Source: Candidatus Saccharimonadia bacterium (GTDB lineage: Bacteria > Patescibacteriota > Saccharimonadia > Saccharimonadales > 2-12-FULL-41-12). From it: a stretch of DNA of 64,000 nucleotides. The notes below the pieces were generated by a model. The model was not told where the DNA came from and did no database searches. It worked only from the letters and a program-made list of their open reading frames with translations. This document shows positions 4,797 to 62,841 of this stretch, piece after piece. The position numbers and the translations under genes were made by a program. Each line of letters opens with the position of its first letter. Position 1 is the stretch's first letter. The stretch lies in the NCBI GenBank assembly GCA_963717365.1, contig OY970327.1:267599-331598 (forward strand), read 5' to 3'.

Positions 4797-5290
4797 CGGA
4801 AATTAGTAAAATCAAGCGGAAAATCAAAATCTTGAGCGCGAAGTAATTGCATGACTCCTTGCAATTCGTCCTTTTTGGGGCTGGTGACGCGCACCTCGTC
4901 GCCTTGGATCTGTGGTTTTACTTTTGGATACTGTTCGCGAATGACGGCAGTGACTTTTTTGGCGTTTTCAGCGTTTAGACCTTTTTTGAACGGCACTTCT
5001 TTGGTGGTTTTGAGATTACTCACCGTAGCTTCCTTGGTCGCGTCAAGTACCTTCTGGCTCTGGCCGCGAGTAGCTAGTTTCTTGCGGACAATATCCAAGA
5101 TGGCGTCGATATGGTAATCGCTATCACCAGTAATTTTTAAACCGGTTTTATCGCTGTCTAGCCAATCTAGCTCGGCCTGAGTACCCTTAAGGTCATAACG
5201 ATTACTAAGCTCTTTTTTTGCCTGCTCTACAACATTGTTCATCTCGGCCTTGTCATAATCGGAAACAATATCAAGAGAAAAATTTGCCAT
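4793..5290 (-). CDS. yajQ: YajQ family nucleotide/cyclic-di-GMP-binding protein (UPF0234)
   Basis: 165 aa. MANFSLDIVSDYDKAEMNNVVEQAKKELSNRYDLKG is the typical YajQ N-terminus, and the length is typical. Confidence 0.85.
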   Translation of the reverse strand: MANFSLDIVSDYDKAEMNNVVEQAKKELSNRYDLKGTQAELDWLDSDKTGLKITGDSDYHIDAILDIVRKKLATRGQSQKVLDATKEATVSNLKTTKEVPFKKGLNAENAKKVTAVIREQYPKVKPQIQGDEVRVTSPKKDELQGVMQLLRAQDFDFPLDFTNFR

Positions 5291-5296
5291 ACGGAT

Positions 5297-5305
5297 ATTT
5301 TACCA
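5297..5305 (-). promoter_or_regulatory. extended -10 promoter of yajQ (leaderless geometry)
   Basis: The minus strand reads TGgTAAAAT, then 6 nt (atccgt) to ATG at 5290. Confidence 0.45.
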
Positions 5306-5347
5306 CGATCAACTCCGTATATCAGTAATCTGACATAGTAATTTTAC

Positions 5348-43114: not shown

Positions 43115-43141
43115 CTAGCACTCTTGACATGAGAGTGCTAA
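43115..43141 (+). promoter_or_regulatory. CIRCE-type inverted repeat (HrcA operator-like) over the clpC promoter
   Basis: CTAGCACTC-ttgacatga-GAGTGCTAA versus the CIRCE consensus TTAGCACTC-N9-GAGTGCTAA: 17/18 arm positions match and the N9 spacer is exact. The spacer contains the -35 TTGACA. Confidence 0.75.
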
Positions 43142-43153
43142 TTCTAGTATCAT
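43124..43153 (+). promoter_or_regulatory. sigma-70-type promoter of clpC
   Basis: -35 TTGACA (43124-43129), 18-nt spacer, -10 TATCAT (43148-43153). Confidence 0.55.
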
Positions 43154-43200: not shown

Positions 43201-45675
43201 ATGATGCCATCTTCTCCTGACTTTCAGGAATTTTTAAATCATCTAACTGACAACGCTTTAGCCAGTTTGCGCAATGCTGATGCAATTGCTCGCGGCAGCG
43301 GCAGTGCTTACGTTGGTACAGAGCACTTATTACTTGGTGTACTTGCTCAGGACAATTCAATGGGAGCCAAATTGCTTGAAGGTGTGGGCGTAAGCCTTCA
43401 AAAGGCTAAACTTGCGCTTAACGTAACTCCAGGACCTATGCAAGCACTCGGCGCAAAAGGCCTAAGTGAAGTTGCAAAACTTACACTTAAAATGGCCTAC
43501 GAAATTGCCCAGGACTTCAGTCAGGATTACTGTGGGACCGAACATATTTTATACAGCATACTCAGTCAGAAGAATGCCCGTGCAACAGAATTACTGAAGA
43601 ATATGAATGTTGAAGTCGATAATCTTATAACAGAGCTTGATAACTTTTTGCATCGCCAACAATCTAGCGGCGGTGGTATTGCCGAAGCTCAGAAGCCCGC
43701 AACACGCAAACAAAAAAAGACAGCATTAGATTTTTTTGGCACTGACTTAACGGCGCTGGCACGTAATAAAAAATTGGATCCGGTGGTTGGCCGGGAGAAC
43801 CAAATTCGTCGCGTGATCACCATTCTCAGTCGTCGCACAAAAAGTAATCCGGTTCTAATTGGTGAACCAGGGGTTGGTAAAACAGCCATTGTTGAAGGTT
43901 TGGCAGCAAGAATCGTCGCCGAGGATGTGCCCGACAGCCTTTTAGACAAGCGGATTGTAATGCTGGACCTTGCCGCGATGATTGCTGGTACTAAGTACCG
44001 TGGTGAATTTGAGGAACGACTCAAAAAAGTTATGGCAGAACTTGAAAATGATAAAAGTACAATTGTCTTTGTAGATGAGCTACATTTAATTGTTGGCGCA
44101 GGTGCCGCTGAAGGTGCGCTTGATGCCGGTAATATGCTCAAACCGGCTCTGGCCCGTGGAAAAATTCATATGATTGGTGCAACAACGACTGATGAATATA
44201 CTAAACATATTGAAAAAGACGCAGCTCTTGAGCGAAGATTCCAGCCTGTCCAGGTTCCTGAGACTACCGAACCAGAAACAATTTCCATCTTAAAAGGACT
44301 GAAGAAACATTACGAAGCATTCCACAATGTGACAATTAGCGATGATGTGATTGAGGATACGGTGCGATTTGCTAAACGGTATATTAACGATCGTTTTATG
44401 CCTGATAAAGCTATTGATTTGCTTGATGAAGCTGCTGCACATTTACGCGTTGATAAAGGCAAAACACCGCCAGAACTTCGTGAAGCACAAAAAGAACTAA
44501 GGTTACTCCAAATTCGTATTGAGGATGCAGCAGCTAACGAGGACTATGAAGCTGCAGCACGCTATAAAACTCGTGCTAGTCAGTTAACGCAAGATATTAC
44601 TGAGCTTCACAGTAAATATCAGGATACCGAAAAACTTAGGCTGAGTAGCGACGATGTTGCTGCTGTTGTGGCTCGGATAACCGGCGTTCCTGTCCAGAAA
44701 GTTATTAGGACAGAAGCCAAATACTTATTAAATCTGGAAAAAACATTAAAGAAACATATAATTGGTCAATCTGAAGCAATCGAAGCGGTTGCTAAAGCAG
44801 TTCGTCGTAATCGAAGCGGTATTAGTGATGATCGCCGGCCGATCGGTTCGTTTGTGTTTCTTGGTCCAACCGGTGTCGGTAAAACAGAGCTTGCCCGCAC
44901 ATTGGCGCGTGAATTTTTTGGTAGGGACGACGCCTTGGTTAAGATAGACATGAGTGAATTTGGTGAACATCATAACGTATCGCGTCTTGTTGGTGCACCT
45001 GCTGGTTACGTAGGATATGACGATGGGGGGCAATTAACTGATAGGATTCGCCGACAACCATACAGCTTAGTACTGTTTGATGAAATTGAAAAAGCCCACC
45101 CAGATGTCTTTAATATGCTACTTCAATTACTTGAAGACGGCCGTTTGACCGATGGGAAGGGCCGCGTAATCGATTTTAGTAATACAGTGGTCATAATGAC
45201 TAGTAATATTGGTGCCGAAAAGCTGCAGAAGGAAGCGCGACTAGGCTTTAACGTAGAAAGCAAGCAAGATCAAAAAGACCTAGATCTGCTACATGAACGT
45301 AATAAAGAAGAAGTGCTAGAATCACTGCGCAAGATAATGCGGCCCGAACTTCTCAACCGCATAGATAACTCAATTGTTTTTCGCGCACTTACAAAGGATG
45401 AAATTCTTAGCATTCTTGATTTACAAATTGCGAATTTAGAACAACGTTTAGTACGCCATGGCTTAGGACTCAAGATTAAGGCTTCAGCTAAAAGGTATTT
45501 AGCGGAACATGGCTATGATGTAAAAAATGGGGTACGGCCGTTGCGTCGTTTGCTGCAAGAAACACTTGAAGACAATATTTCAAACGGGCTGCTTGACGGA
45601 ACCTACAATAAGGGCGATATGATCAGCATTAGTGCCCGCGACGGAAAATTGACGTACAAAGCAATAAGAGAATAA
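43201..45675 (+). CDS. clpC: ATP-dependent Clp protease ATP-binding subunit ClpC
   Basis: Two Clp_N repeats, two AAA+ modules ([16 protein letters not shown]), a short UVR-like middle domain ([16 protein letters not shown]) and the ClpP-docking loop RLGF. ATG 43201 is used because the tracked start 43129 lies inside the CIRCE/-35 element. Confidence 0.93.
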
Positions 45676-45743
45676 TGGTATACTTCCTCGGTATATCTTA
45701 ACCGCTCTCGTGTTATTGTTACGAGACTCAATAGTACATAAAC

Positions 45744-46715
45744 ATGAAACAAACTTCACGATTATTTGCAGCCGTATGTTCTTTTGCAATTATTTTTGGC
45801 TCAATTTTTGCCTTTACTCAACGGCAGCATATTTTAGATGCCTTGGCTCTACGCAACTATTCACCGAGCGAACGGATTGTGGCGCTCGCTAATGATACAA
45901 CTATGCAAGACAGCACGAGACGGGTTTTCTATGTTAATCATCCCCAACTTAATGATAAAACAGCTTTCCGGACTAATTGTCCTGCCACCGAACAATCCAT
46001 TGTTCTCGGCTGCTACGTAGAACGAAACGGCATATTTCTACTAGATGTAAATGACCCCAGATTAGAAGGTGTGATACAGGTTACTGCAGCGCATGAGGTT
46101 TTGCATGCGCAGTATGACCGACTAAGTGCGTCAGAGCGTAATCGGCTTGATGGTTTGACCGGTGCTTTCTTTGCTACCTTAAATAATGAAAGATTAACCA
46201 AGACTATTGAACAATATCGTGCAAAGGATGCTTCCGTCGTACCAAATGAGCTACACTCGATACTTGCTACCGAAGTGCGTGAGCTTTCGCCCGAATTAGA
46301 AGCCTATTACAGTCAATATTTTAAAAATCGCTCCCAACTGGTTAGCTTTTCAGAAAAATATGAACAAACCTTTGTAAGTCTAACCAATCAAGTAGAAGAA
46401 TACGACAAGCAGTTAACGATACTTAAGCAAGCTATAGAATCCGACCAAATGGAAATTGAAGCTCAAAACGTAGAAATTGAACAACAGAAACAACGATTAG
46501 ATGGGCTTATTAATTCTGGAGCCACTAATGAGTACAACGACTCAGTGCCAGGCTTTAATACGCTTGTAAAGCGTTACAATGGTTTAATTGCCAGTGCCCG
46601 CGCGCAAATAAATGAGTATAATACTATTGTCGAGAAACGAAATGCTATTGCTACCACAGAGCAAGAGTTAGTCGAAGCAATTAATAGCAATGCGGTTCCA
46701 CAGCAAACACAGTAA
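45744..46715 (+). CDS. hypothetical membrane-anchored HExxH protein with C-terminal coiled coil
   Basis: N-terminal TM (LFAAVCSFAIIFGSIFAF), the single zinc-metallopeptidase-like motif VTAAHEVLHAQ, and a Q/E-rich coiled coil (EEYDKQLTILKQAIESDQMEIEAQNVEIEQQKQRL). Confidence 0.6.
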   Translation: MKQTSRLFAAVCSFAIIFGSIFAFTQRQHILDALALRNYSPSERIVALANDTTMQDSTRRVFYVNHPQLNDKTAFRTNCPATEQSIVLGCYVERNGIFLLDVNDPRLEGVIQVTAAHEVLHAQYDRLSASERNRLDGLTGAFFATLNNERLTKTIEQYRAKDASVVPNELHSILATEVRELSPELEAYYSQYFKNRSQLVSFSEKYEQTFVSLTNQVEEYDKQLTILKQAIESDQMEIEAQNVEIEQQKQRLDGLINSGATNEYNDSVPGFNTLVKRYNGLIASARAQINEYNTIVEKRNAIATTEQELVEAINSNAVPQQTQ

Positions 46716-46742
46716 GGGAGTATTCTAATCGCTAAAAATTCT

Positions 46743-48083
46743 TTGCAGTACGTCTGTAATAACTGCGGAGCAATTAGCTCGTCGTGGAGTGGTAAATGTA
46801 TGACCTGCGGCGAGTGGAACACCTTGCAGCAAGAAGCAGTAATTATCTCTGGTGGTAGTACTAAATCCACCCGGCGCCGTCCTGCCCTGCAAATTGTGCC
46901 GGCTCAAACTGCCAGTCATGTTGATAGCTCAATTCGTATTAAAACAACAATTCATGATGTAGATTCTGTACTGGGCGGCGGCTTGGTAGCGGGAAGCGTT
47001 ACATTAATCGCCGGACAGCCCGGTATTGGTAAAAGTACTTTGTTGCTTCAAATTGCCGCAGGTGTCTCAAAAAAGCATCCCACGCTTTATATTAGCGGCG
47101 AAGAATCAGCTCATCAGGTTGGTCTCCGGGCTCGTCGGTTAGGTGTTGAAAATGATGCTGTCCAACTCGCAACAAGTACTAGCGCAGATGATATTGCGGC
47201 TACCATTGGTCGGGAAAATTTTTCAGTTGTAATTGTTGACTCCATTCAAACCTTAACGGTTGAAGGCATTGCTTCTGCGGCAGGAACAGTATCGCAGATA
47301 ACTAATGCCACTCATATACTAACTGCTGCTGCCAAGCAAAAGAATACAGCAGTAATACTAGTAGGCCATGTTACTAAGGAAGGTTCAATCGCTGGTCCTA
47401 AGGTATTGGAGCATGTTGTAGACACCGTACTGCAGCTAGAAGGTGACCGCTACGGCGGCTTTAAGCTTCTTAGAAGTATTAAGAACCGTTTTGGTTCTAC
47501 CACCGAAACTGGTATTTTCGAAATGGTCGATAACGGCTTGGCAGAGGTAAGCAATCCCTCGGCGGCATTACTAGCTGAACGACAGGTAAGTGATGGGTCG
47601 GTTGTTCTAGCTACTATGGAAGGCAGCCGGGCGCTCTTAGTAGAAGTTCAAGCCTTAGTTAATAAAACGTCGTACGGTTATCCAAAACGCGCTGCCAGCG
47701 GCATAGAGCTTAATCGCCTGAATTTACTGATAGCTATGTTAGAGCGGCGCACAAAACTTAATTTAAGCGATCAAGACATCTACATCAATATTGTAGGTGG
47801 TATGAAAATTAACGAACCTGGAGCAGATTTGGCTATTTGTATGGCTATTGCATCAGCGTCCAAAGGGATGCAGCTAAAAGCCAACGCTGTGGTGTTTGGA
47901 GAAATTGGTTTGTCAGGCGAGGTGCGCCACGTGCCATTTGCTGAACGTAGACTAGAGGAGGCTACTAAACTAGGTTTTGACGCGGCAATTGGACCTAAAT
48001 TAAGTGGACGGGCTGCAAAAACAAGTATTTTGCAGCCGGTATCGGATGTACGTAGCGCGCTTAATACTTATTTAGAAATTTAA
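46743..48083 (+). CDS. radA: DNA repair protein RadA/Sms
   Basis: Zinc finger CNNCGAISSSWSGKCMTCGEW, Walker A GQPGIGKSTL, KNRFG motif, Lon-like C-terminal domain. TTG is the only start available after the in-frame stop at 46734. Confidence 0.93.
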   Translation: MQYVCNNCGAISSSWSGKCMTCGEWNTLQQEAVIISGGSTKSTRRRPALQIVPAQTASHVDSSIRIKTTIHDVDSVLGGGLVAGSVTLIAGQPGIGKSTLLLQIAAGVSKKHPTLYISGEESAHQVGLRARRLGVENDAVQLATSTSADDIAATIGRENFSVVIVDSIQTLTVEGIASAAGTVSQITNATHILTAAAKQKNTAVILVGHVTKEGSIAGPKVLEHVVDTVLQLEGDRYGGFKLLRSIKNRFGSTTETGIFEMVDNGLAEVSNPSAALLAERQVSDGSVVLATMEGSRALLVEVQALVNKTSYGYPKRAASGIELNRLNLLIAMLERRTKLNLSDQDIYINIVGGMKINEPGADLAICMAIASASKGMQLKANAVVFGEIGLSGEVRHVPFAERRLEEATKLGFDAAIGPKLSGRAAKTSILQPVSDVRSALNTYLEI

Positions 48084-51124: not shown

Positions 51125-51225
51125 GAATTACCCATAACTCCTCTTGCGTATTTTATGTTAACCATTATACCAAAGTTGGGCGTGTGCATATAGCTCTTTT
51201 GTTTAAATTGCCGCTCAGCAATGTG

Positions 51226-51231
51226 TATACT
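51226..51231 (+). promoter_or_regulatory. -10 box of tyrS (leaderless geometry)
   Basis: TATACT preceded by TGTG, then 7 nt to ATG 51239, no SD. Confidence 0.4.
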
Positions 51232-51238
51232 TATAAAT

Positions 51239-52468
51239 ATGACATTATCAGAAGAACTTACCTGGCGTGGTTTTATTCAGCACACCACTTTTAAAAATCT
51301 ACATGAGCTAAATGAAAAGCAATGGACTTTTTACCATGGTTATGACGCTTCGGCAGATTCCCAGACAGTTGGCAATTTAGCAGCTATGATGGTTGACAAA
51401 GTATTTTTAAGACACGGTCATCAAGCGATTATACTGACAGGCGGGGCCACTAGCTTAATTGGTGATCCAGGCGGTAAAGATAAAGAACGTTCACTACAAG
51501 ATGAAAAAACTATTGCACATAACATTAAGCGCGCAGAAGAACAGCTAAATAAAATTCTGATTGGCTACAAGTTTAAAATGGTAAACAACCTTGACTGGAC
51601 CAAAGAACTTAAATTATTGCCATTCCTGCGAGACATTGGAAAACATTACAGTATGACACCACTCGTACAGCGTGACTACATCGCAAATCGTATTGGCGAA
51701 GGCGGAGGCGGTATTAGCTACACCGAGTTTAGCTATACCTTGCTTCAAGGCTATGACTACCTTCATCTGTTTGATAAATATGGTTGCACGCTTCAGCTCG
51801 GTGGCTCTGACCAGTGGGGAAATTGTCTCAGTGGAGTGGAACTGATTAGGAAAGCTCGCGGTGTCGACGCGCATGTAATTACATTGCCTTTAATTATCAA
51901 TAAATCAACTGGTAAAAAATTCGGTAAAAGCGAAGAAGGTGCTATATGGATTGATGAAAAGAAAACTAGTGTCTTTAAGTTTTATCAGTTCTGGCTTAAT
52001 ACCGATGATGATAGCGTAGAGGCTTACCTCAAAATATATACCGAGCTAGATAAAGCCACGATTACACTTGCCATGGCAGAATTTGAAGCCAACCGGAATT
52101 TACGAATGGCGCAACGAGTGTTGGCCTATGAGGTGACAAAAATTGTTCATGGTATAAAACGTGCTAATGAAGCAGTCAAAGCGACAAAGGTACTTTACGG
52201 GGAAGGTGATTTTCTTGATTTAGGAAAAAATGAAATGCATATTCTTAAGCATGAATTAGCGGTAGTTAAGGCGCATAATGATTTGCCACTGATTTTAGTG
52301 GAAGCTGGCTTGGCTTCATCAAAAGGAGAAGCCCGAAAATTTCTAGAGTCTGGAGCGATCTCAGTTAACGGCCAGAAAGCCGGACCGCAAAATCTTGACC
52401 TATTTGTTAAAGGCAATAATTTACTTAAACGCGGTAAAAATAATTTCGCCATTGCCGAGAAGAAGTAA
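51239..52468 (+). CDS. tyrS: tyrosine--tRNA ligase (non-canonical HIGH motif)
   Basis: TyrRS pattern FYHGYDASADS..VGNL, GGATSLIGDPGGK, KFGKS (KMSKS equivalent), C-terminal S4 domain. ATG 51239 is preferred. Confidence 0.92.
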   Translation: MTLSEELTWRGFIQHTTFKNLHELNEKQWTFYHGYDASADSQTVGNLAAMMVDKVFLRHGHQAIILTGGATSLIGDPGGKDKERSLQDEKTIAHNIKRAEEQLNKILIGYKFKMVNNLDWTKELKLLPFLRDIGKHYSMTPLVQRDYIANRIGEGGGGISYTEFSYTLLQGYDYLHLFDKYGCTLQLGGSDQWGNCLSGVELIRKARGVDAHVITLPLIINKSTGKKFGKSEEGAIWIDEKKTSVFKFYQFWLNTDDDSVEAYLKIYTELDKATITLAMAEFEANRNLRMAQRVLAYEVTKIVHGIKRANEAVKATKVLYGEGDFLDLGKNEMHILKHELAVVKAHNDLPLILVEAGLASSKGEARKFLESGAISVNGQKAGPQNLDLFVKGNNLLKRGKNNFAIAEKK

Positions 52469-52474
52469 TATACT
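52469..52474 (+). promoter_or_regulatory. -10 box of the methyltransferase gene (leaderless geometry)
   Basis: TATACT, then 7 nt to ATG 52482, no SD. Confidence 0.35.
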
Positions 52475-52481
52475 AGCTCCT

Positions 52482-53252
52482 ATGCCTAAAAATCCACTCA
52501 ACCCAAAAAAAGCCAATCAATACGACAATGATGACTATAATTATCTTGATTATTGGACCGGCCGCGACTATGAACACGAAGCTGAAGAAATGGCTATTAA
52601 GCGACTTATTAAAGATATGCACTTCAAATCGGCCGCAGATATTGGCGGCGGCTACGGGCGGCTTTGCTTACTCCTTGAGAATTATGCCGATAAAGTAACT
52701 CTTGTTGAGCCCTCTAAATCTCAACTTGATATTGCTGATAATTTTTTAAAAGGCCATAATCGAATTCATCAAATGCTTGGCCAGGCTGACGATCTTGCAT
52801 TTAAAGATGAGTCAGTAGATTTAATTACGATGATTAGGGTCATGCATCATTTGCCAAATCCGTTACCCGAGCTATCGGAAATGCACCGCATATTAACTAA
52901 AGATGGTTACTTTGTGTTGGAACTGGCCAATTATGCTCATGCCCGCAACCGTATCAAGCATTTACTAAAAGGCAAGCCGCTACCTAAGCAGCCAATTGAT
53001 ATTCGTTCTGAAAAAAATAAGCGAGCTGAAGAAATTGCTTTTGTAAACCATAATCCTCAAACTGTTATACGTCAATTGGATAGCGTAGGTTTTACCGTTG
53101 AGCGTATATTATCGGTTTCAAATTTGCGCTCCCCAGGTATCAAAAAATACATACCCCAAGCTGTTATGCTAAGCCTTGAAAAAGTTATGCAACCAACGCT
53201 TGCAATGACCTATTTTGGACCAAGTGTTTTTTTTCTACTTAAGAAGAAATAA
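52482..53252 (+). CDS. class I SAM-dependent methyltransferase
   Basis: Motif I AADIGGGYGR, motif post-I VTLVEPS, and DLITMIRVMHHL. ATG 52482, because the tracked start 52395 overlaps tyrS. Confidence 0.8.
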   Translation: MPKNPLNPKKANQYDNDDYNYLDYWTGRDYEHEAEEMAIKRLIKDMHFKSAADIGGGYGRLCLLLENYADKVTLVEPSKSQLDIADNFLKGHNRIHQMLGQADDLAFKDESVDLITMIRVMHHLPNPLPELSEMHRILTKDGYFVLELANYAHARNRIKHLLKGKPLPKQPIDIRSEKNKRAEEIAFVNHNPQTVIRQLDSVGFTVERILSVSNLRSPGIKKYIPQAVMLSLEKVMQPTLAMTYFGPSVFFLLKKK

Positions 53253-54040: not shown

Positions 54041-56080
54041 ATGAACATACAAAGTCAGTTAGGGGATGTCACCGGGATTGGCGCTGCTGCTGTTCAAAAA
54101 TTAGCCGTGCTTGGCGTTTACTCTATTTGGGACTTAATTCATTATTATCCAAGACGATACGACGATTACTCCACACTTACTCCTATTGCAAACCTTAAGC
54201 CTGGTGTAGTCAGCGTTGAGGCTGTCATTAAACAAATCACTGGCCGATATGTACGTCGTGGCATGCACATTACAGAAGCGGTTGCGAGTGATAAAACTGG
54301 TAGCTTACGTCTGATTTGGTTTAACCAGCCATACCGGGCAAATGCAACTAAATTACAGCAGACTTATTTTATATCAGGCAACTTTGAAATGTCACGTGGA
54401 CGATTGTCCCTGATGAATCCAGCAATGGAGCTAACCAGCGAATTTCCAGTAAATACTGCTCGCATCGTGTCTATATACCGTGAGACAAAGGGGTTCAAAT
54501 CGGCCAGTATCCGTAAACTTATTGTAAAGTTAATGCCTTACATCCAAACAATACCAGAAAATTTGCCCGCTTCTGTAGTCCTAGAACACAAACTTCTACC
54601 TCACTCCGAAGCTATACTTGCTATGCATTTCCCTGAGTCAGTCGTGCAGCTTGATGCTGCTCGCCGCCGGCTTGGTTTTGAAGAGATTTTTAGCTTAAGT
54701 CTTGCCAGTGTATTGAATAAAATAGAAGCCACTCGTCAAAAAACACATAACATTCCCTTTAATGAGAAGCTTATCCAGGAGTTTGTCGGCAGTTTACCGT
54801 TTACATTAACAGATTCTCAGCGTCGAGTTGCTTGGCAAATATTCCAAGATTTGAACAAGGACATGCCAATGAATCGTATGATTGAGGGTGATGTCGGTTC
54901 CGGCAAGACCGTAGTAGCCGCCATGGCAGCATTAGTGGCGATAGATCATGGCTTTCAAGTGGCGTTTATGGCACCTACCGAATTGTTAGCTAGTCAACAC
55001 GCAGACAATTTATATAAGCTCTTACAGCCAGTAGACAAACATCAGCAAGTCGCCTTATTAACTGGCAGTCTTAAGCCAAAACAAAAGAAGGTTTTGCATG
55101 CAGCTATCACAGAGGGTAAAACAAATTTAATTATTGGCACGCATGCTCTTATTACTCAAAAAGTCTCAATGCATAAATTAGGTTTGGTTATTATTGACGA
55201 ACAACATCGATTTGGGGTTGAGCAGCGTAAAAAATTGCAGCAAAAAGCTGATGGTAGAATGCCGCATGTCATCAGTATGACTGCTACGCCGATTCCACGG
55301 ACTCTTGCACTCACACTGTACGGGGAACTAGACATTTCTGTTTTGCACGAAAAACCAAGTGGACGTTTGCCAGTGATTACTGAAATTATTTCTCCCAACT
55401 CACGCAAGCCATTATATGGGAAAATTGAACAAGAACTCAGCCGCGGTGGACAGATGTTCGTAGTATGTCCGTTGATTAGCGAATCTGACAAACTAGTGGC
55501 TCTATCAGCAGAGAAGGTGTATGAAGAATTTTCAAAAAAACAGTTTAAGCATCGCAGAGTTGGTCTACTGCACGGCAAAATGAAAGCAGAAGAAAAGGAC
55601 AACATAATGGCTAAGTTCGTTACCCATGAACTAGATATACTAGTCTCGACTACCGTAATAGAAGTGGGTGTCGACGTACCAAATGCCACTATCATGCTTA
55701 TTGAAGGCGCAGAACGGTTTGGACTGGCACAAATACATCAGTTGCGCGGCCGAGTGGGGCGCAGCGCTGAACAGGGCTACTGCTATTTAATAATGAGCGA
55801 TAGCAAAGAACCAACCCGTCGATTGCGGGCTGTTCAGAATTCAAATGATGGCTTTAAGCTGAGTGAACTTGATTTAGAAATACGTGGGCCGGGTGCAATT
55901 TACGGTCAGTCTCAGTCTGGCGAACTTGACCTACGAATTGCAAAGTTAACAGACGTAAAATTAATTGAAGCTGCCCGAACTGCTGCCAACGCTTTTGCTG
56001 TTTCCGATCAAAAATTGTCAGACTATCCTTCGTTACAAGCACAAGTCAGTAAATATCGTTCAGTAACAAATCTTAATTAG
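54041..56080 (+). CDS. recG: ATP-dependent DNA helicase RecG
   Basis: Wedge/OB domain, helicase motifs GDVGSGKT and DEQHRFG, and QLRGRVGR. Confidence 0.93.
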   Translation: MNIQSQLGDVTGIGAAAVQKLAVLGVYSIWDLIHYYPRRYDDYSTLTPIANLKPGVVSVEAVIKQITGRYVRRGMHITEAVASDKTGSLRLIWFNQPYRANATKLQQTYFISGNFEMSRGRLSLMNPAMELTSEFPVNTARIVSIYRETKGFKSASIRKLIVKLMPYIQTIPENLPASVVLEHKLLPHSEAILAMHFPESVVQLDAARRRLGFEEIFSLSLASVLNKIEATRQKTHNIPFNEKLIQEFVGSLPFTLTDSQRRVAWQIFQDLNKDMPMNRMIEGDVGSGKTVVAAMAALVAIDHGFQVAFMAPTELLASQHADNLYKLLQPVDKHQQVALLTGSLKPKQKKVLHAAITEGKTNLIIGTHALITQKVSMHKLGLVIIDEQHRFGVEQRKKLQQKADGRMPHVISMTATPIPRTLALTLYGELDISVLHEKPSGRLPVITEIISPNSRKPLYGKIEQELSRGGQMFVVCPLISESDKLVALSAEKVYEEFSKKQFKHRRVGLLHGKMKAEEKDNIMAKFVTHELDILVSTTVIEVGVDVPNATIMLIEGAERFGLAQIHQLRGRVGRSAEQGYCYLIMSDSKEPTRRLRAVQNSNDGFKLSELDLEIRGPGAIYGQSQSGELDLRIAKLTDVKLIEAARTAANAFAVSDQKLSDYPSLQAQVSKYRSVTNLN

Positions 56081-56085
56081 CAGCC

Positions 56086-56094
56086 TGTTACAAT
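56086..56094 (+). promoter_or_regulatory. extended -10 promoter of rsmD (leaderless geometry)
   Basis: TGtTACAAT, then 7 nt to ATG 56102, no SD. Confidence 0.45.
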
Positions 56095-56101
56095 ATTCAC
56101 T

Positions 56102-56629
56102 ATGAGAGTAATTGCTGGCTGGCTTGGTGGTAGAATATTTGATTCTCCACGCGGACATCGCACCCATCCGATGAGCGAAAAAATGCGTGGCGCGATTTTT
56201 GGCGCGCTAGGTGACATTAAAGGTCTGACCGTTCTCGATGCGTTTTCAGGCAGCGGGGCATTAGCTGTAGAAGCAATTAGCAGGGGTGCAGACAGTGCAG
56301 TTAGTATAGATATGGATCCGGCTGCTCATAAAATTATAGAAACCAATATAAAGACGTTAGGTATTGATGAACGTATTAAAGCTATCAGAGCGTATGCCGG
56401 TGCATGGTCTACGCGACATCAAGCAACCTTATTTGACGTAGTATTGCTTGATCCGCCATATGACAATATTCCTTATCGTGACTTAAGACGAATGCCCCGG
56501 CACGTAAAAAAAAATGGCGTATTGGTTTTATCTTGGCCAGGTAAAATGGAGCCACTTACATTTGATGACTTAGAAATCGTCCAGCGCAAAGATTATAACG
56601 ACTCACAATTGATATTTTATAAAAAATAA
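56102..56629 (+). CDS. rsmD: 16S rRNA (guanine(966)-N(2))-methyltransferase RsmD
   Basis: LDAFSGSGALAVEAISRGA and DPPY motifs. 175 aa. Confidence 0.88.
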   Translation: MRVIAGWLGGRIFDSPRGHRTHPMSEKMRGAIFGALGDIKGLTVLDAFSGSGALAVEAISRGADSAVSIDMDPAAHKIIETNIKTLGIDERIKAIRAYAGAWSTRHQATLFDVVLLDPPYDNIPYRDLRRMPRHVKKNGVLVLSWPGKMEPLTFDDLEIVQRKDYNDSQLIFYKK

Positions 56630-58844: not shown

Positions 58845-60149
58845 ATGACTAACTTATCAACCCAGCCCTATAAAGGTGCCCGAGATTTTTTCCCAGAAGA
58901 CAAACGGGCTCAGGACTACATGTTTAACACCATGCGCAAAGTGGTAAAACGATACGGGTATGCCGAATATGACGCGCCAATCCTGGAGCCACTAGACCTT
59001 TACCGCGCTAAAAGTGGCGAAGAAATAGTTAATGAGCAGGTATACAGTTTTACAGATCGTGGTGGCCGTGAAGTGACAATTCGTCCAGAGATGACACCAA
59101 CAGTCAGTCGAATGGTGGCGGCTCGGCGGCAAGAATTGCCATATCCACTGCGTTGGTTTTCTATTCCAAATCTATGGCGCTACGAGCGCCCCCAGCGAGG
59201 AAGACTGCGAGAACATTGGCAACTGAATGTCGATATTTTTGGCGAACCAGGTGTAGCCGCCGACCACGAAACAATCTCAATAGCGCACAACATCTTAAAA
59301 GAATTTGGTGCGACGCAAAGCATGTATGCCATTAAGATTAATAACAGGCAATTAGTAGATTTTTTATTAAAAGATTACCTTAACCTGAACGATGAGAAAT
59401 CGCATACACTATCAAAGCTGATCGACCGCATGCATAAGATGGACAGTCAGAAGCTAATAGACGCCATTAATGAGATTTGTAAGAATGAGCCGGCAGACCT
59501 AGCTCAGAAAATTATTGCACTGCTGGAAATTAAATCATTTGACGAACTACCAGAAATGGCACAAGGTCACTCTTCTGTCGCAGAACTGAGAACATTGTTT
59601 AAAACGCTTGATCAGACAGGTGTTACTAATGCGGTCTTCGACATCACACTAATGAGGGGTTTTGACTATTATAGCGGCACCGTCTTTGAAGTATTTGACA
59701 CTGACCCAGAAAACAATCGCAGCATGTTTGGTGGCGGACGCTACGACGGCTTGGTAGGTTTGTTTGGCGTTGAACCTGTAGCCACTGTAGGTTTTGGTAT
59801 GGGCGATGTTACGCTTGCCAATTTTTTACAAGCGCACAAGCTAATGCCGGATCTAAAAAATGAGACTGACGTGCTATTGATACTCATTGGCGATGTCTAT
59901 TTAGAAGCAAGTAAACTCGCAAGCCGACTGCGTGATATGGAGCTAAATGTCAGCCTGGACGCGACTGACAGGAAGCTAGAAAAGAAACTGAAAAGCGCTG
60001 ATAAACAAGGAATACGGTACGTGTTATTTGTTGGCCAAGACGAACTTGCCGAAGAACAGTATCCCCTTAAAGACCTAGTAACCGGCAAAGAAGAAAAGCA
60101 TAGCGCAGAACGTATAGCCAGCATTATAGAAGACTATCGTACCCGCTAG
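58845..60149 (+). CDS. hisS: histidine--tRNA ligase
   Basis: Class II motifs RPEMTPTVSRMV, RGFDYYSGTVFE, GGGRYDGL. C-terminal anticodon-binding domain. Confidence 0.95.
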   Translation: MTNLSTQPYKGARDFFPEDKRAQDYMFNTMRKVVKRYGYAEYDAPILEPLDLYRAKSGEEIVNEQVYSFTDRGGREVTIRPEMTPTVSRMVAARRQELPYPLRWFSIPNLWRYERPQRGRLREHWQLNVDIFGEPGVAADHETISIAHNILKEFGATQSMYAIKINNRQLVDFLLKDYLNLNDEKSHTLSKLIDRMHKMDSQKLIDAINEICKNEPADLAQKIIALLEIKSFDELPEMAQGHSSVAELRTLFKTLDQTGVTNAVFDITLMRGFDYYSGTVFEVFDTDPENNRSMFGGGRYDGLVGLFGVEPVATVGFGMGDVTLANFLQAHKLMPDLKNETDVLLILIGDVYLEASKLASRLRDMELNVSLDATDRKLEKKLKSADKQGIRYVLFVGQDELAEEQYPLKDLVTGKEEKHSAERIASIIEDYRTR

Positions 60150-60189
60150 AGTATGGCATTCTGTTCACCGTGACAATCTGTTAAAACAC

Positions 60190-60198
60190 TGGTATAGT
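60190..60198 (+). promoter_or_regulatory. extended -10 promoter of tig (leaderless geometry)
   Basis: TGgTATAGT, then 8 nt to ATG 60207, no SD. Confidence 0.45.
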
Positions 60199-60206
60199 TA
60201 TCAGCT

Positions 60207-61487
60207 ATGCATATAACGAAGACCGCCATATCATCAACTGAAATCAAACTGTTAATTTCGGCCGATACTACTGAACTCACTCCAATCAAAGAACAAGTTG
60301 TTACCCGTTTGTCGCAAAACCTAAAGTTGCCTGGATTTCGGAATGGCAAAGTCCCCCAAGCACTTATTGAAAAAAATATAGATCAGGCGCTGTTGCAAAA
60401 TGACTTTTTGGATGAAGCCATGACACAGCTATATGCCTACGCAACCAGAAAAGAGGACGTCCGTCCAGTAACGCAGCCGCGGGTAGAAGTAAAAAAATTT
60501 GTACCCTACACCCAACTGGAATTTGAAGTAAGCACCCATGTAATCGGTGAAACAAAACTACCAGATTATAAAAAAATGAGCATTACAAAGGAAAAAGTAG
60601 CAGTTTTTGCGAAAGATATCACTGGTGTAATTGATTCGCTTAAAACTCGTATGGCAGAAAAAAAGGCTGTTATGCGAGCTGCAAAGTCTGGTGACGAAGC
60701 AGTAATTGACTTTAAGGCAGTAAATGCCAACAAGGAACCGATTGAAAATGCCGAGGGAGCAGATTACCCATTACAGCTTGGCAGTGGAGCATTTATTCCT
60801 GGCTTTGAAGAGAATGTAATCGGTATGAAGCCGGCCGAAGAAAAATCATTTCCATTAACGTTTCCCAAAGATTATAGTGCTAAAGACATGGCAGGACAAA
60901 AAGTTACATTTACCGTGACCCTTAAAGTTGTTAATGAACTAATTGAACCCAAAACTGATGATGATTTTGCAGCTAAGGTCGGTCCATTTAAAAATATGGA
61001 TGAATTAAAAGCTGACATTAAAAAACAACTTACCATTGAACGAGAGCGCGAAGCCGAAGCAAATTATCAAGATACAGTTCTACACAAAATTAGCCAGGCT
61101 GCAACGGTTGAAATACCTGATGTGCTAATAGAGCAACAAATAACCTATAACCTCGATGATATCCGTCGCAACCTAGTACAGCGTGGCCAGACTTTTGAAG
61201 AATTTTTGAAAGCCGAAGGCAAAACAGAAGACCAATATAAGAAAGAGCTGAAACCAAAAGCGCTTGATCAGCTCAAAGCCAGCCTTATTCTCTCAGAGAT
61301 CGCTGAAAAGGAAAATATTACTATTGAACCAGAAGAACTGGACATTCGAATTCAAATGCTCAAAGGCCAGTATAAAGATGCCGCTATGCAGGCCGAACTA
61401 GATAAGCCAGAAAATCGCCGCGACATTGCTTCCCGTATGTTAAGCGAGAAAGTCATCAACTTTATTATTAGCAACTTGAAAAAATAA
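60207..61487 (+). CDS. tig: trigger factor
   Basis: Ribosome-binding N-domain (GFRNGKVP), central FKBP-like PPIase region (GAFIPGFEENVIGMK), helical C-domain. Confidence 0.92.
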   Translation: MHITKTAISSTEIKLLISADTTELTPIKEQVVTRLSQNLKLPGFRNGKVPQALIEKNIDQALLQNDFLDEAMTQLYAYATRKEDVRPVTQPRVEVKKFVPYTQLEFEVSTHVIGETKLPDYKKMSITKEKVAVFAKDITGVIDSLKTRMAEKKAVMRAAKSGDEAVIDFKAVNANKEPIENAEGADYPLQLGSGAFIPGFEENVIGMKPAEEKSFPLTFPKDYSAKDMAGQKVTFTVTLKVVNELIEPKTDDDFAAKVGPFKNMDELKADIKKQLTIEREREAEANYQDTVLHKISQAATVEIPDVLIEQQITYNLDDIRRNLVQRGQTFEEFLKAEGKTEDQYKKELKPKALDQLKASLILSEIAEKENITIEPEELDIRIQMLKGQYKDAAMQAELDKPENRRDIASRMLSEKVINFIISNLKK

Positions 61488-61488
61488 A

Positions 61489-61515
61489 TTAGCACTCAGG
61501 GTTGACGAGTGCCAA
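61489..61515 (+). promoter_or_regulatory. CIRCE-type inverted repeat (HrcA operator-like) over the clpP promoter
   Basis: TTAGCACTC-agggttgac-GAGTGCCAA: 17/18 arm positions match the consensus and the N9 spacer is exact. The spacer/right arm contains the -35 TTGACG. It begins 2 nt after the tig stop. Confidence 0.75.
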
Positions 61516-61530
61516 AAATAGACATATACT
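61502..61530 (+). promoter_or_regulatory. sigma-70-type promoter of clpP (leaderless geometry)
   Basis: -35 TTGACG (61502-61507), 17-nt spacer, -10 TATACT (61525-61530). The ATG at 61537 is only 6 nt downstream. Confidence 0.6.
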
Positions 61531-61536
61531 AGTGGC

Positions 61537-62133
61537 ATGAGTGTACTTATTCCAACTGTTATTGAACAAGAAGGTCGCAATGAGCGAGCCTACGATATTT
61601 ATAGCCGCCTTTTAAAGGAACGAATAATTTTTCTGGGCACAGATGTAAATGAGCATACCGCCAATCTTATTGTTGCGCAGCTTCTGCACCTGGCTAATGA
61701 GGATTCCAAAAAGGATATCTCGCTGTATATCAATAGCCCAGGCGGCAGCGTGTATGATGCCTTGGCAATTTATGACACCATGCAGTTTATTAAACCAGAC
61801 ATCGCAACTTACGGTATTGGCGTTCAAGCCAGTGCAGCGGCATTTCTGCTGAGTAGCGGTACCAAAGGCAAGCGCTCCATGCTCCAGCATGCCACCGTTA
61901 TGATTCACCAGCCTTCTAGCGGTACTCGCGGCAAAGTAACTGACCAAGAAATTGATTTGCGCGAATCACTCCGTATTAAACGCTTGCTTGAAGAGATAAT
62001 GGCCAAAAACACCGGCCAAAAGCCAGAAAAAATCCATGAAGACATGGAACGAGACAAGTGGTTGACTGCCCAGGAGTCCAAAAAATACGGCATTATTGAC
62101 CATGTCATTTCAACTATTCCAGCTAAAAAATAA
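61537..62133 (+). CDS. clpP: ATP-dependent Clp protease proteolytic subunit
   Basis: N-terminus [30 protein letters not shown]. Catalytic Ser in [11 protein letters not shown], His in MIHQPS, Asp in MERDKW. Confidence 0.95.
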
Positions 62134-62226
62134 TACATCCTTGCAAACCTCAGAATGTAATTGTTATACTCAGATTTGTATAGTACTATCGCAGTAAGAG
62201 GCTTGATACTAAATAGGTGAAAATTC

Positions 62227-62841
62227 ATGTGGCCTGCTGAACGTCTACGACATTTAAATATTAGAAGTGCGGAAACATTACCCGTAGCCACACTTTTTGT
62301 TGAAGTTAATAAAGATGACCCTCGCACGACAGCACAATTCTTGGACGATACTCTTGAGATTATCTTATTATCCCCCGTCCTTCCATCCGGTCCAGAGTTC
62401 GACACTTCCTCTGTAGATTTTTCAATAGAACGTCCATCAGACCGAAAATGCTTAGATGATGAAATTTCCCTGGCGCTTCACAGGTTTTACGGCAGCCGCG
62501 GCAAAGCAGTGAAGCAAGATAGCGAATACAGTTTTGTATTCCAGGATAATGACCTAAAAACAGTACTTGATGACACCCGAGCATTTCTGGAGACGAGTTA
62601 TGGCATTAGCGACGATATTGACACGAGTCTTACAAATTCTGAGCATATCAAAGCATGGATGGCGAACACACATCGCTGGTCGCTACCAGCTTTTTGCTTG
62701 CAAGCAACAAAACGTGCTCTCTTAATTAAGCGTTACAATGAGCTGCCCGGAAATTTAATATCCAAACGCAAAGAACAAAAAGCTATTATTGAAGAGTTAA
62801 TACGCTATTCTGATGACGAATTTGAACATATAACTCGCTGA
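62227..62841 (+). CDS. hypothetical protein
   Basis: 204-aa acidic soluble ORF with RBS AGGTGA 7 nt upstream. No recognisable motif. Confidence 0.55.
   Translation: MWPAERLRHLNIRSAETLPVATLFVEVNKDDPRTTAQFLDDTLEIILLSPVLPSGPEFDTSSVDFSIERPSDRKCLDDEISLALHRFYGSRGKAVKQDSEYSFVFQDNDLKTVLDDTRAFLETSYGISDDIDTSLTNSEHIKAWMANTHRWSLPAFCLQATKRALLIKRYNELPGNLISKRKEQKAIIEELIRYSDDEFEHITR

Follow-up and report, generated by a model that had tools for sequence, protein, structure and literature searches.

An HrcA-type CIRCE operator over the -35 element of a probably leaderless clpP promoter in Saccharibacteria

INTRODUCTION

To our knowledge, transcriptional regulation has hardly been explored in Saccharibacteria and other CPR bacteria. 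The locus described here raises the question of how one such organism controls its protease gene clpP. A 27-bp palindrome separates the trigger factor gene tig from clpP, and a -35-like hexamer lies inside it. The palindrome may be a repressor site on a clpP promoter, a control point on transcripts entering from tig, a relic operator or a structured RNA. We consider it likely that an HrcA-family repressor uses it as a CIRCE operator, set within the core promoter of clpP. Below, we set out the evidence for this reading, weigh the alternatives as the relevant observations arise, and compare the locus with HrcA circuits in other bacteria.

THE clpP OPERATOR AND PROMOTER

The window, i.e., the whole 64-kb stretch of DNA analysed here, encodes a Tig protein that is 100% identical to database protein P0001 from a 1,191,543-bp contig, and its relatives are named Candidatus Saccharimonadales. 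A first-pass annotation had placed a CIRCE element, a -35 and a -10 hexamer and the clpP ATG in the tig-clpP gap. On re-reading positions 59800-62600, all of these coordinates and counts proved exact (Table 1). The element matches the consensus TTAGCACTC-N9-GAGTGCTAA at 17 of 18 arm positions with a spacer of exactly 9 bp. Its right arm, GAGTGCCAA, is a common natural variant that recurs at 18 of the 78 orthologous sites described in the next section.

Table 1. Coordinates of the features discussed in the text. Window positions unless a locus is named; registers A and B are the two placements of the -35 element within the CIRCE spacer.
Feature	Position	Strand	Description
CIRCE operator, clpP	61489-61515	.	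TTAGCACTC-AGGGTTGAC-GAGTGCCAA; 1 mismatch to consensus
CIRCE left arm	61489-61497		TTAGCACTC
CIRCE spacer	61498-61506		AGGGTTGAC
CIRCE right arm	61507-61515		GAGTGCCAA
clpP -35 hexamer	61502-61507	+	TTGACG; CIRCE spacer positions 5-9 plus first G of right arm (register B)
clpP -10 hexamer	61525-61530	+	TATACT; 17 nt 3' of the -35
clpP start codon	61537-61539	+	ATG; 6 nt past the -10; predicted +1 at about the A of ATG
clpP	61537-62133	+	198 aa; Pfam CLP_protease, 1.5e-75
tig (trigger factor)	60207-61487	+	426 aa; Pfam Trigger_N, FKBP_C, Trigger_C
tig stop codon	61485-61487		TAA; 1 nt before CIRCE
tig promoter-like site	60170-60198	+	GTGACA, 17 nt, TG-TATAGT
Sister CIRCE operator, clpC	43115-43141	.	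CTAGCACTC-TTGACATGA-GAGTGCTAA; upstream of clpC
clpC -35 hexamer	43124-43129		TTGACA; spacer positions 1-6, register A
clpC probable -10	43148-43153		TATCAT
clpC	43201-45675	+	824 aa; clpC-type class I AAA+ unfoldase; Pfam Clp_N, AAA, AAA_lid_9, AAA_2, ClpB_D2-small
Leaderless-type window sites	60170-60209, 2505-2532, 5290-5310 (-), 51215-51241, 52460-52484, 56080-56104
Tandem CIRCE before dnaK, examples	L081, L095, L098, L109, L142
Tandem CIRCE before hrcA-grpE-dnaK, example	L201:2924-2997
Short HrcA, examples	L092, L146, L152, L161 and others		Proteins P0136, P0121, P0151

The start of clpP is well defined. The protein exceeds the cutoff of NCBIfam PRK00277 with 288 bits, has a canonical N-terminus, and aligns with its relatives from residue 1. 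Because an in-frame TAG occupies positions 61519-61521, any start further upstream is ruled out. The window sequence has no AGGAG-like Shine-Dalgarno motif before the ATG. We call a start leaderless-type where the -10 box ends ∼5-11 nt before the AUG and a Shine-Dalgarno motif is missing; clpP of the window belongs to this class. On the minus strand, a terminator scan flagged positions 61489-61515 as terminator-like, which corresponds to the palindrome plus the complement of an A-run at the 3' end of tig; no convergent gene ends there.

The same geometry occurs elsewhere in the window. The tig ATG lies 8 nt past its own -10 box, and in at least 10 more genes of the window a good -10 box precedes the first ATG by 6-10 nt. 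Many window genes combine such a -10-like box with the lack of a Shine-Dalgarno motif, including tig and genes for a tyrosyl-tRNA synthetase and a methyltransferase (Table 1). Relatives show a sharp peak of the -10-to-start distance at 6-8 nt, part of which is supplied by the tig and clpP orthologues themselves. The pattern points to frequent use of leaderless mRNAs by this Saccharimonadales genome. Since tig and at least 10 other window genes share it, the leaderless geometry of clpP is credible yet not special to clpP.

Operator and promoter differ in how far each stands out from chance. Scanning the window for the CIRCE consensus with at most three mismatches returned two matches, at 43115 and 61489, against 0.02 expected from dinucleotide-preserving shuffles, and none of 100 shuffles attained two. 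Both sites stand before clp genes. The -35/-10 pair by itself is not significant, with 13 promoter-like sites against 12.6 expected in 6 kb. As the hexamer pair alone is no better than chance, the promoter call rests on conservation across species.

CONSERVATION UPSTREAM OF clpP IN RELATIVES

Using a Tig profile, we collected 80 tig loci from different Saccharibacteria species, 77 of which have clpP downstream of tig. Together with the window, these provide a comparative set of 78 clpP sites. Conservation upstream of clpP in relatives had been proposed as a check in the first-pass annotation, and a CIRCE with at most three mismatches lies within 200 nt upstream of clpP at all 78 sites. A stricter search of 671 kb of the relatives' loci (at most two mismatches) located 73 elements, every one within 150 nt upstream of clpP and none elsewhere.

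The pattern of variation separates the operator arms from their surroundings. At arm pairs 4-9 (GCACTC/GAGTGC), 73-78 of the 78 sites agree, while drift is seen at arm positions 1 and 3 and at the positions paired with them. Flanks and spacer also vary, save for TTGAC. The invariance of the arm core beside drifting non-promoter bases indicates, at the level of sequence comparison, ongoing selection on the arms and not on TTGAC alone.

The embedded -35 always falls within the CIRCE spacer (n = 78), in one of two registers 4 bp apart. In register A, found at 40/78 sites and at clpC of the window, TTGAC begins at spacer position 1 and is replaced by TTGCA in three sites. In register B (38/78, including clpP of the window), its first base is at spacer position 5, and the G of the right arm completes the hexamer. 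A TAnnnT box follows the embedded -35 after 16-18 nt in 74/78 sites. Further downstream, 45/78 sites are leaderless-type, with an in-frame ATG or GTG 5-11 nt past the -10 (most commonly 7 nt) and no Shine-Dalgarno motif. Among the remaining 33, 32 have a 15-100-nt leader with an AGGAG-type Shine-Dalgarno sequence. Because the -35 and -10 are fixed whereas the leader is present or absent across the 78 sites, the promoter is the constant part of the arrangement and the leader an optional one. This is what a real promoter that makes a leaderless clpP mRNA in about half of the lineages would look like. Register and leader also appear correlated: 32 of 38 register B sites are leaderless and 26 of 40 register A sites are Shine-Dalgarno-led, in raw counts that ignore phylogeny. 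The register varies between close relatives of the window, which suggests that switching is frequent.

RELATION TO tig

In the window, only 1 nt separates the tig stop codon from the operator. Across the 77 relatives, the median distance is 305 nt and the longest 3.6 kb; it exceeds 200 nt in 55/77 loci and is 30 nt or less in just 14. At one locus (L205), two genes separate tig from the CIRCE-clpP unit. As judged from these distances, the CIRCE element keeps company with clpP rather than with tig. This bears on the suggestion in the first-pass annotation that the element insulates clpP from tig read-through: such insulation is possible in this genome, but with CIRCE more than 200 nt from tig in most loci it is not a conserved arrangement.

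A terminator scan found no plus-strand terminator-like site in the 49-nt tig-clpP gap. Because tig ends 1 nt before the operator and no terminator intervenes, some transcription of clpP by read-through from tig is possible. A stronger version of this idea would deny clpP a promoter of its own: clpP would be co-transcribed with tig, and CIRCE with bound HrcA between the two genes would act as a roadblock or attenuator. The short gap and the missing terminator speak for it, as does a precedent in Mycoplasma pneumoniae, where the tig promoter is described as driving lon, with a CIRCE between the two genes exerting control (PMC7737663). The comparative data point the other way. The -10 box keeps its 16-18 nt distance from the embedded -35 in 74/78 sites, and CIRCE usually lies far from tig, often with intervening genes, while its distance to the -10 and to clpP is unchanged. 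Moreover, a clpP ATG without a Shine-Dalgarno motif would be translated poorly inside a read-through RNA. We regard exclusive co-transcription with tig as unlikely, though it is the best placed of the alternatives; a clpP promoter within the operator and a measure of tig read-through could coexist.

THE clpC OPERATOR AND THE ClpCP PAIR

The second CIRCE of the window precedes clpC, and its arms match the classical element at 17/18 positions. Both this site and the LGF loop that the first-pass annotation had ascribed to ClpC hold up, the latter as an LGF motif at residue 681 in the D2 domain. The same arrangement of CIRCE before a clpC orthologue occurs on four metagenomic contigs (L138, L153, L154, and L184). 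The observation that no clpX follows clpP likewise stands, as the ORF downstream of clpP has no clpX identity by Pfam or NCBIfam. A ClpX query, validated with NCBIfam, gave no match at E<1e-5 in the window or in the 80 relatives' loci.

The neighbourhoods of both genes contain unassigned ORFs. A 204-aa ORF (62227-62841) adjoins clpP in the place that clpX takes in many bacteria. Neither Pfam nor NCBIfam gives it a match, and it is preceded by a promoter-like site of its own (62141-62170) and a Shine-Dalgarno-like GGTGA. On the 3' side of clpC are a 323-aa ORF (45744-46715), also lacking a Pfam or NCBIfam match, and then radA/sms (46743-48083). The clpC-radA stretch (43201-48083) recalls the Bacillus ctsR-mcsA-mcsB-clpC-radA order, but without ctsR or mcsAB.

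We also considered CtsR as a co-regulator of clpP and clpC. A window scan for the CtsR tandem heptad GGTCAAANANGGTCAAA found none near 43.1 kb or 61.5 kb. The window holds five matches (four with three mismatches and one with two) at unrelated positions, with 2.0 expected. CtsR co-regulation was rejected, as neither gene has a CtsR box nearby.

THE HrcA REPRESSOR AND ITS REGULON IN THE CLADE

The 64-kb window itself contains no hrcA, as judged by Pfam on 30 ORFs and by tblastn with a B. subtilis HrcA and 38 CPR HrcA sequences. The HrcA of the source genome is likewise not among the best 120 matches listed for a Saccharimonadales HrcA profile. We infer that this genome has hrcA because the clade does and because the two operators of the window are near-perfectly preserved.

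At the level of the clade, the evidence is abundant. A scan of metagenomic contigs with the register A module TTAGCACTCTTGACNNNNGAGTGCTAA yielded 120 loci. The first gene downstream is most often hrcA-like (38 loci) or dnaK (24 loci, with a second CIRCE right after the -10), followed by clpP (8), groES (5), clpC (4), clpB (4), hsp20 (3), groEL (1) and dnaJ (1). The canonical class I genes hrcA, dnaK and groES/groEL are thus preceded by the same operator in the lineage. On a 982-kb Saccharimonadales contig, hrcA heads an hrcA-grpE-dnaK operon behind a tandem CIRCE, the first copy of which has an embedded -35. We sought hrcA and tig-clpP together on one contig of a relative (∼980 kb); the two lie on different contigs.

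The proteins encoded by these hrcA-like genes are short, at 225-240 aa (∼238 aa) as against ∼340 aa for canonical HrcA, a difference of ∼100 aa. NCBI labels them ‘transcriptional regulator’ or ‘HTH domain-containing protein’. One subgroup falls in clusters named from Candidatus Saccharimonadales/Saccharibacteria MAGs, and a profile built from it matched 8000 of 8000 scored candidates at E<1e-30. The matches carry PF01628 and PF03444 and bear Saccharibacteria names. The N-terminal winged helix aligns with Thermotoga maritima HrcA (1STZ) at 1.4e-23, an alignment confined to the N-terminal part. One 240-aa representative (P0136) scores 182 bits against TIGR00331, below the curated equivalog cutoff of 197. 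The repressor of the clade is an HrcA-family protein of a short variant type; its dimerisation and its dependence on GroEL are assumptions.

Two further observations concern the distribution of the operator. Leader-bearing genes carry a tandem CIRCE, one copy around the -35 and a second (TTGGCACTC-N9-GAGTGCTAA or similar) just after the -10 (Table 1). A register A CIRCE also precedes genes for small FmdB-family zinc-ribbon proteins (MPTYEYxC...) on four contigs (L084, L087, L113 and L140) that are high in GC and evidently not CPR; these would be HrcA-regulon members beyond the usual chaperones.

The atypical repressor opens a second alternative, namely that the palindrome serves some regulator other than HrcA, or none at all in this organism, and persists as a relic operator kept only for its -35. 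It draws on the facts that hrcA is demonstrated for the clade and not for this genome, and that the clade protein is unusually short and scores under the equivalog cutoff. It fits poorly with arms that match classical CIRCE at 17/18 positions before both clpP and clpC, with an arm core that is invariant over 78 lineages while nearby non-promoter bases drift, and with HrcA-family genes that stand directly behind the same motif in the clade. We give it a low probability, a little below that of exclusive co-transcription with tig.

Least probable of all, to the point that we set it aside, is a role for the inverted repeat at the RNA level, be it a stem-loop that terminates or stabilises the 3' end of tig or an element that sets mRNA stability. 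A hairpin can form, and the repeat was flagged as terminator-like on the minus strand, but on the plus strand its stem is followed by the A-rich tract AAAAAUAGAC and not by a U-run, the fold of 61470-61560 is no better than that of shuffles (z = -0.51), Rfam gives no match, and the element tracks clpP, not tig. Nor do the variable arm positions covary: A·C mismatches number 15 at pair 3/25, where the three G-C pairs equal the expectation under independence. An RNA element and a Rho-independent tig terminator were rejected on these grounds of fold, Rfam, covariation and missing plus-strand U-run. Because CIRCE is located upstream of the predicted transcription start, it would be absent from the transcript of the clpP promoter itself.

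Taken at the level of sequence, the palindrome is a genuine HrcA operator overlying the -35 of a clpP promoter, and this promoter is probably leaderless. The first-pass proposal, an HrcA-type operator on a clpP promoter that initiates transcription at or close to the ATG, is thereby strongly supported, by the presence of CIRCE at every clpP site, by the fixed -10 and by the 45/78 leaderless-type starts. The abundant Saccharibacteria hrcA genes that carry the same operator lend the HrcA assignment further weight.

A MODEL FOR clpP CONTROL

The arrangement suggests how operator and promoter may share the same DNA. Since recognition by HrcA is confined to the two 9-bp arms, the 9-bp spacer is free to hold the -35. 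A bound HrcA dimer would occlude the -35 together with the first third of the -35/-10 spacer, and would thereby keep a sigma-70-type RNA polymerase off the clpP promoter. By analogy to the established model of GroEL titration, GroES/GroEL would become occupied by unfolded proteins, leaving HrcA inactive and the promoter open. Transcription would then begin ∼7 nt past TATACT, at the A of the clpP ATG, and the leaderless mRNA would be translated without a Shine-Dalgarno sequence. HrcA binding, induction by heat or proteotoxic stress, and the exact clpP transcription start are what we infer from this arrangement. The lack of a 5' UTR would also explain the position of the operator on the -35, as it leaves no room downstream of the -10. 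Where a leader exists, as for dnaK and hrcA, a second CIRCE does sit downstream of the -10. Because clpC carries the same module, both parts of ClpCP would be induced together with the chaperones.

COMPARISON WITH KNOWN HrcA SYSTEMS

The circuit itself is the known HrcA/CIRCE mechanism and as such unsurprising. Some of its features are variant: the -35 inside the operator in two registers, the leaderless targets, the short HrcA and the coverage of ClpCP. In Bacillus, the CIRCE operator is part of the leader, at the transcription start or beyond it. Here, by contrast, the operator encloses the -35, the mRNA is predicted to be leaderless, and the HrcA of the clade is ∼100 aa shorter. Streptococcus salivarius clpP is reportedly under dual regulation by CtsR and HrcA, and its promoter region resembles that of the window in bearing a CIRCE operator. 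Unlike S. salivarius clpP, which also has a CtsR operator, the Saccharibacteria gene has no CtsR box, and clpC is under CIRCE as well.

HrcA/CIRCE control of the class I dnaK and groESL operons was described in B. subtilis (Zuber & Schumann 1994; Mogk et al. 1997; as outlined in PMC7737663 and PMC4245973). The Saccharibacteria system has the same consensus, TTAGCACTC-N9-GAGTGCTAA, the same repressor family, and negative control of a sigma-70-type promoter in common with it. Whereas the B. subtilis regulon consists of chaperones only, with clpP and clpC under CtsR, the targets here are clpP and clpC, and a CtsR box is missing. Recruitment of a Clp ATPase gene to the HrcA regulon has a parallel in clpL of Lactobacillus gasseri, mentioned as HrcA-controlled in PMC3192767. 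That case involves a different Clp ATPase, a Firmicute that has CtsR, and a promoter that is not leaderless.

The closest precedent is the tig-CIRCE-lon arrangement of Mycoplasma. HrcA regulons of Mycoplasma include lon and clpB, and M. pneumoniae has the gene order tig-CIRCE-lon; in M. gallisepticum, the regulon comprises clpB, lon, dnaK and dnaJ (PMC7737663, PMC4245973). The likenesses are a reduced genome and an HrcA, in Mollicutes the main or only heat-shock regulator, that governs ATP-dependent proteases, disaggregases and chaperones. As in M. pneumoniae, CIRCE directly follows the trigger factor gene and precedes a protease gene. The two differ in that the protease is Lon in Mycoplasma, which has no ClpP, and ClpP here, in a different phylum; and in that a complete promoter is embedded in the operator here, unlike the tig-driven lon of M. 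pneumoniae. Our full-text literature search returned no paper tying HrcA/CIRCE to Saccharibacteria, Patescibacteria or CPR, and nothing on leaderless mRNAs in these groups.

IMPLICATIONS

A broader reading, which we favour with only modest conviction, is that the entire proteostasis network of Saccharibacteria, and of Patescibacteria/CPR at large, would answer to a short HrcA as its sole master regulator. The network would comprise DnaK, GroES/EL and Hsp20 as chaperones, ClpB as disaggregase and ClpCP as protease. It would be controlled through a compact promoter-operator cassette with the -35 in the CIRCE spacer, in two registers 4 bp apart that are correlated with leaderlessness. If true, such a design would open leaderless mRNAs, which offer no 5' UTR for an operator, to control by a classical repressor.

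The clpP site and its 77 orthologues constitute a well-defined, testable regulon for a hard-to-culture lineage. They also supply a promoter model for it: a -35 TTGAC, 17 nt, TAnnnT, and a start ∼7 nt downstream. The comparative evidence for common leaderless mRNAs bears on the annotation of gene starts and on the design of expression tools in growable strains. Finally, these results indicate a link between ClpCP proteolysis and the chaperone-sensing HrcA circuit, comparable to that of Lon in Mycoplasma. The link looks like a convergent simplification in reduced genomes and places a protease under chaperone-type control in the little-studied, tiny Saccharibacteria (TM7/Patescibacteria).
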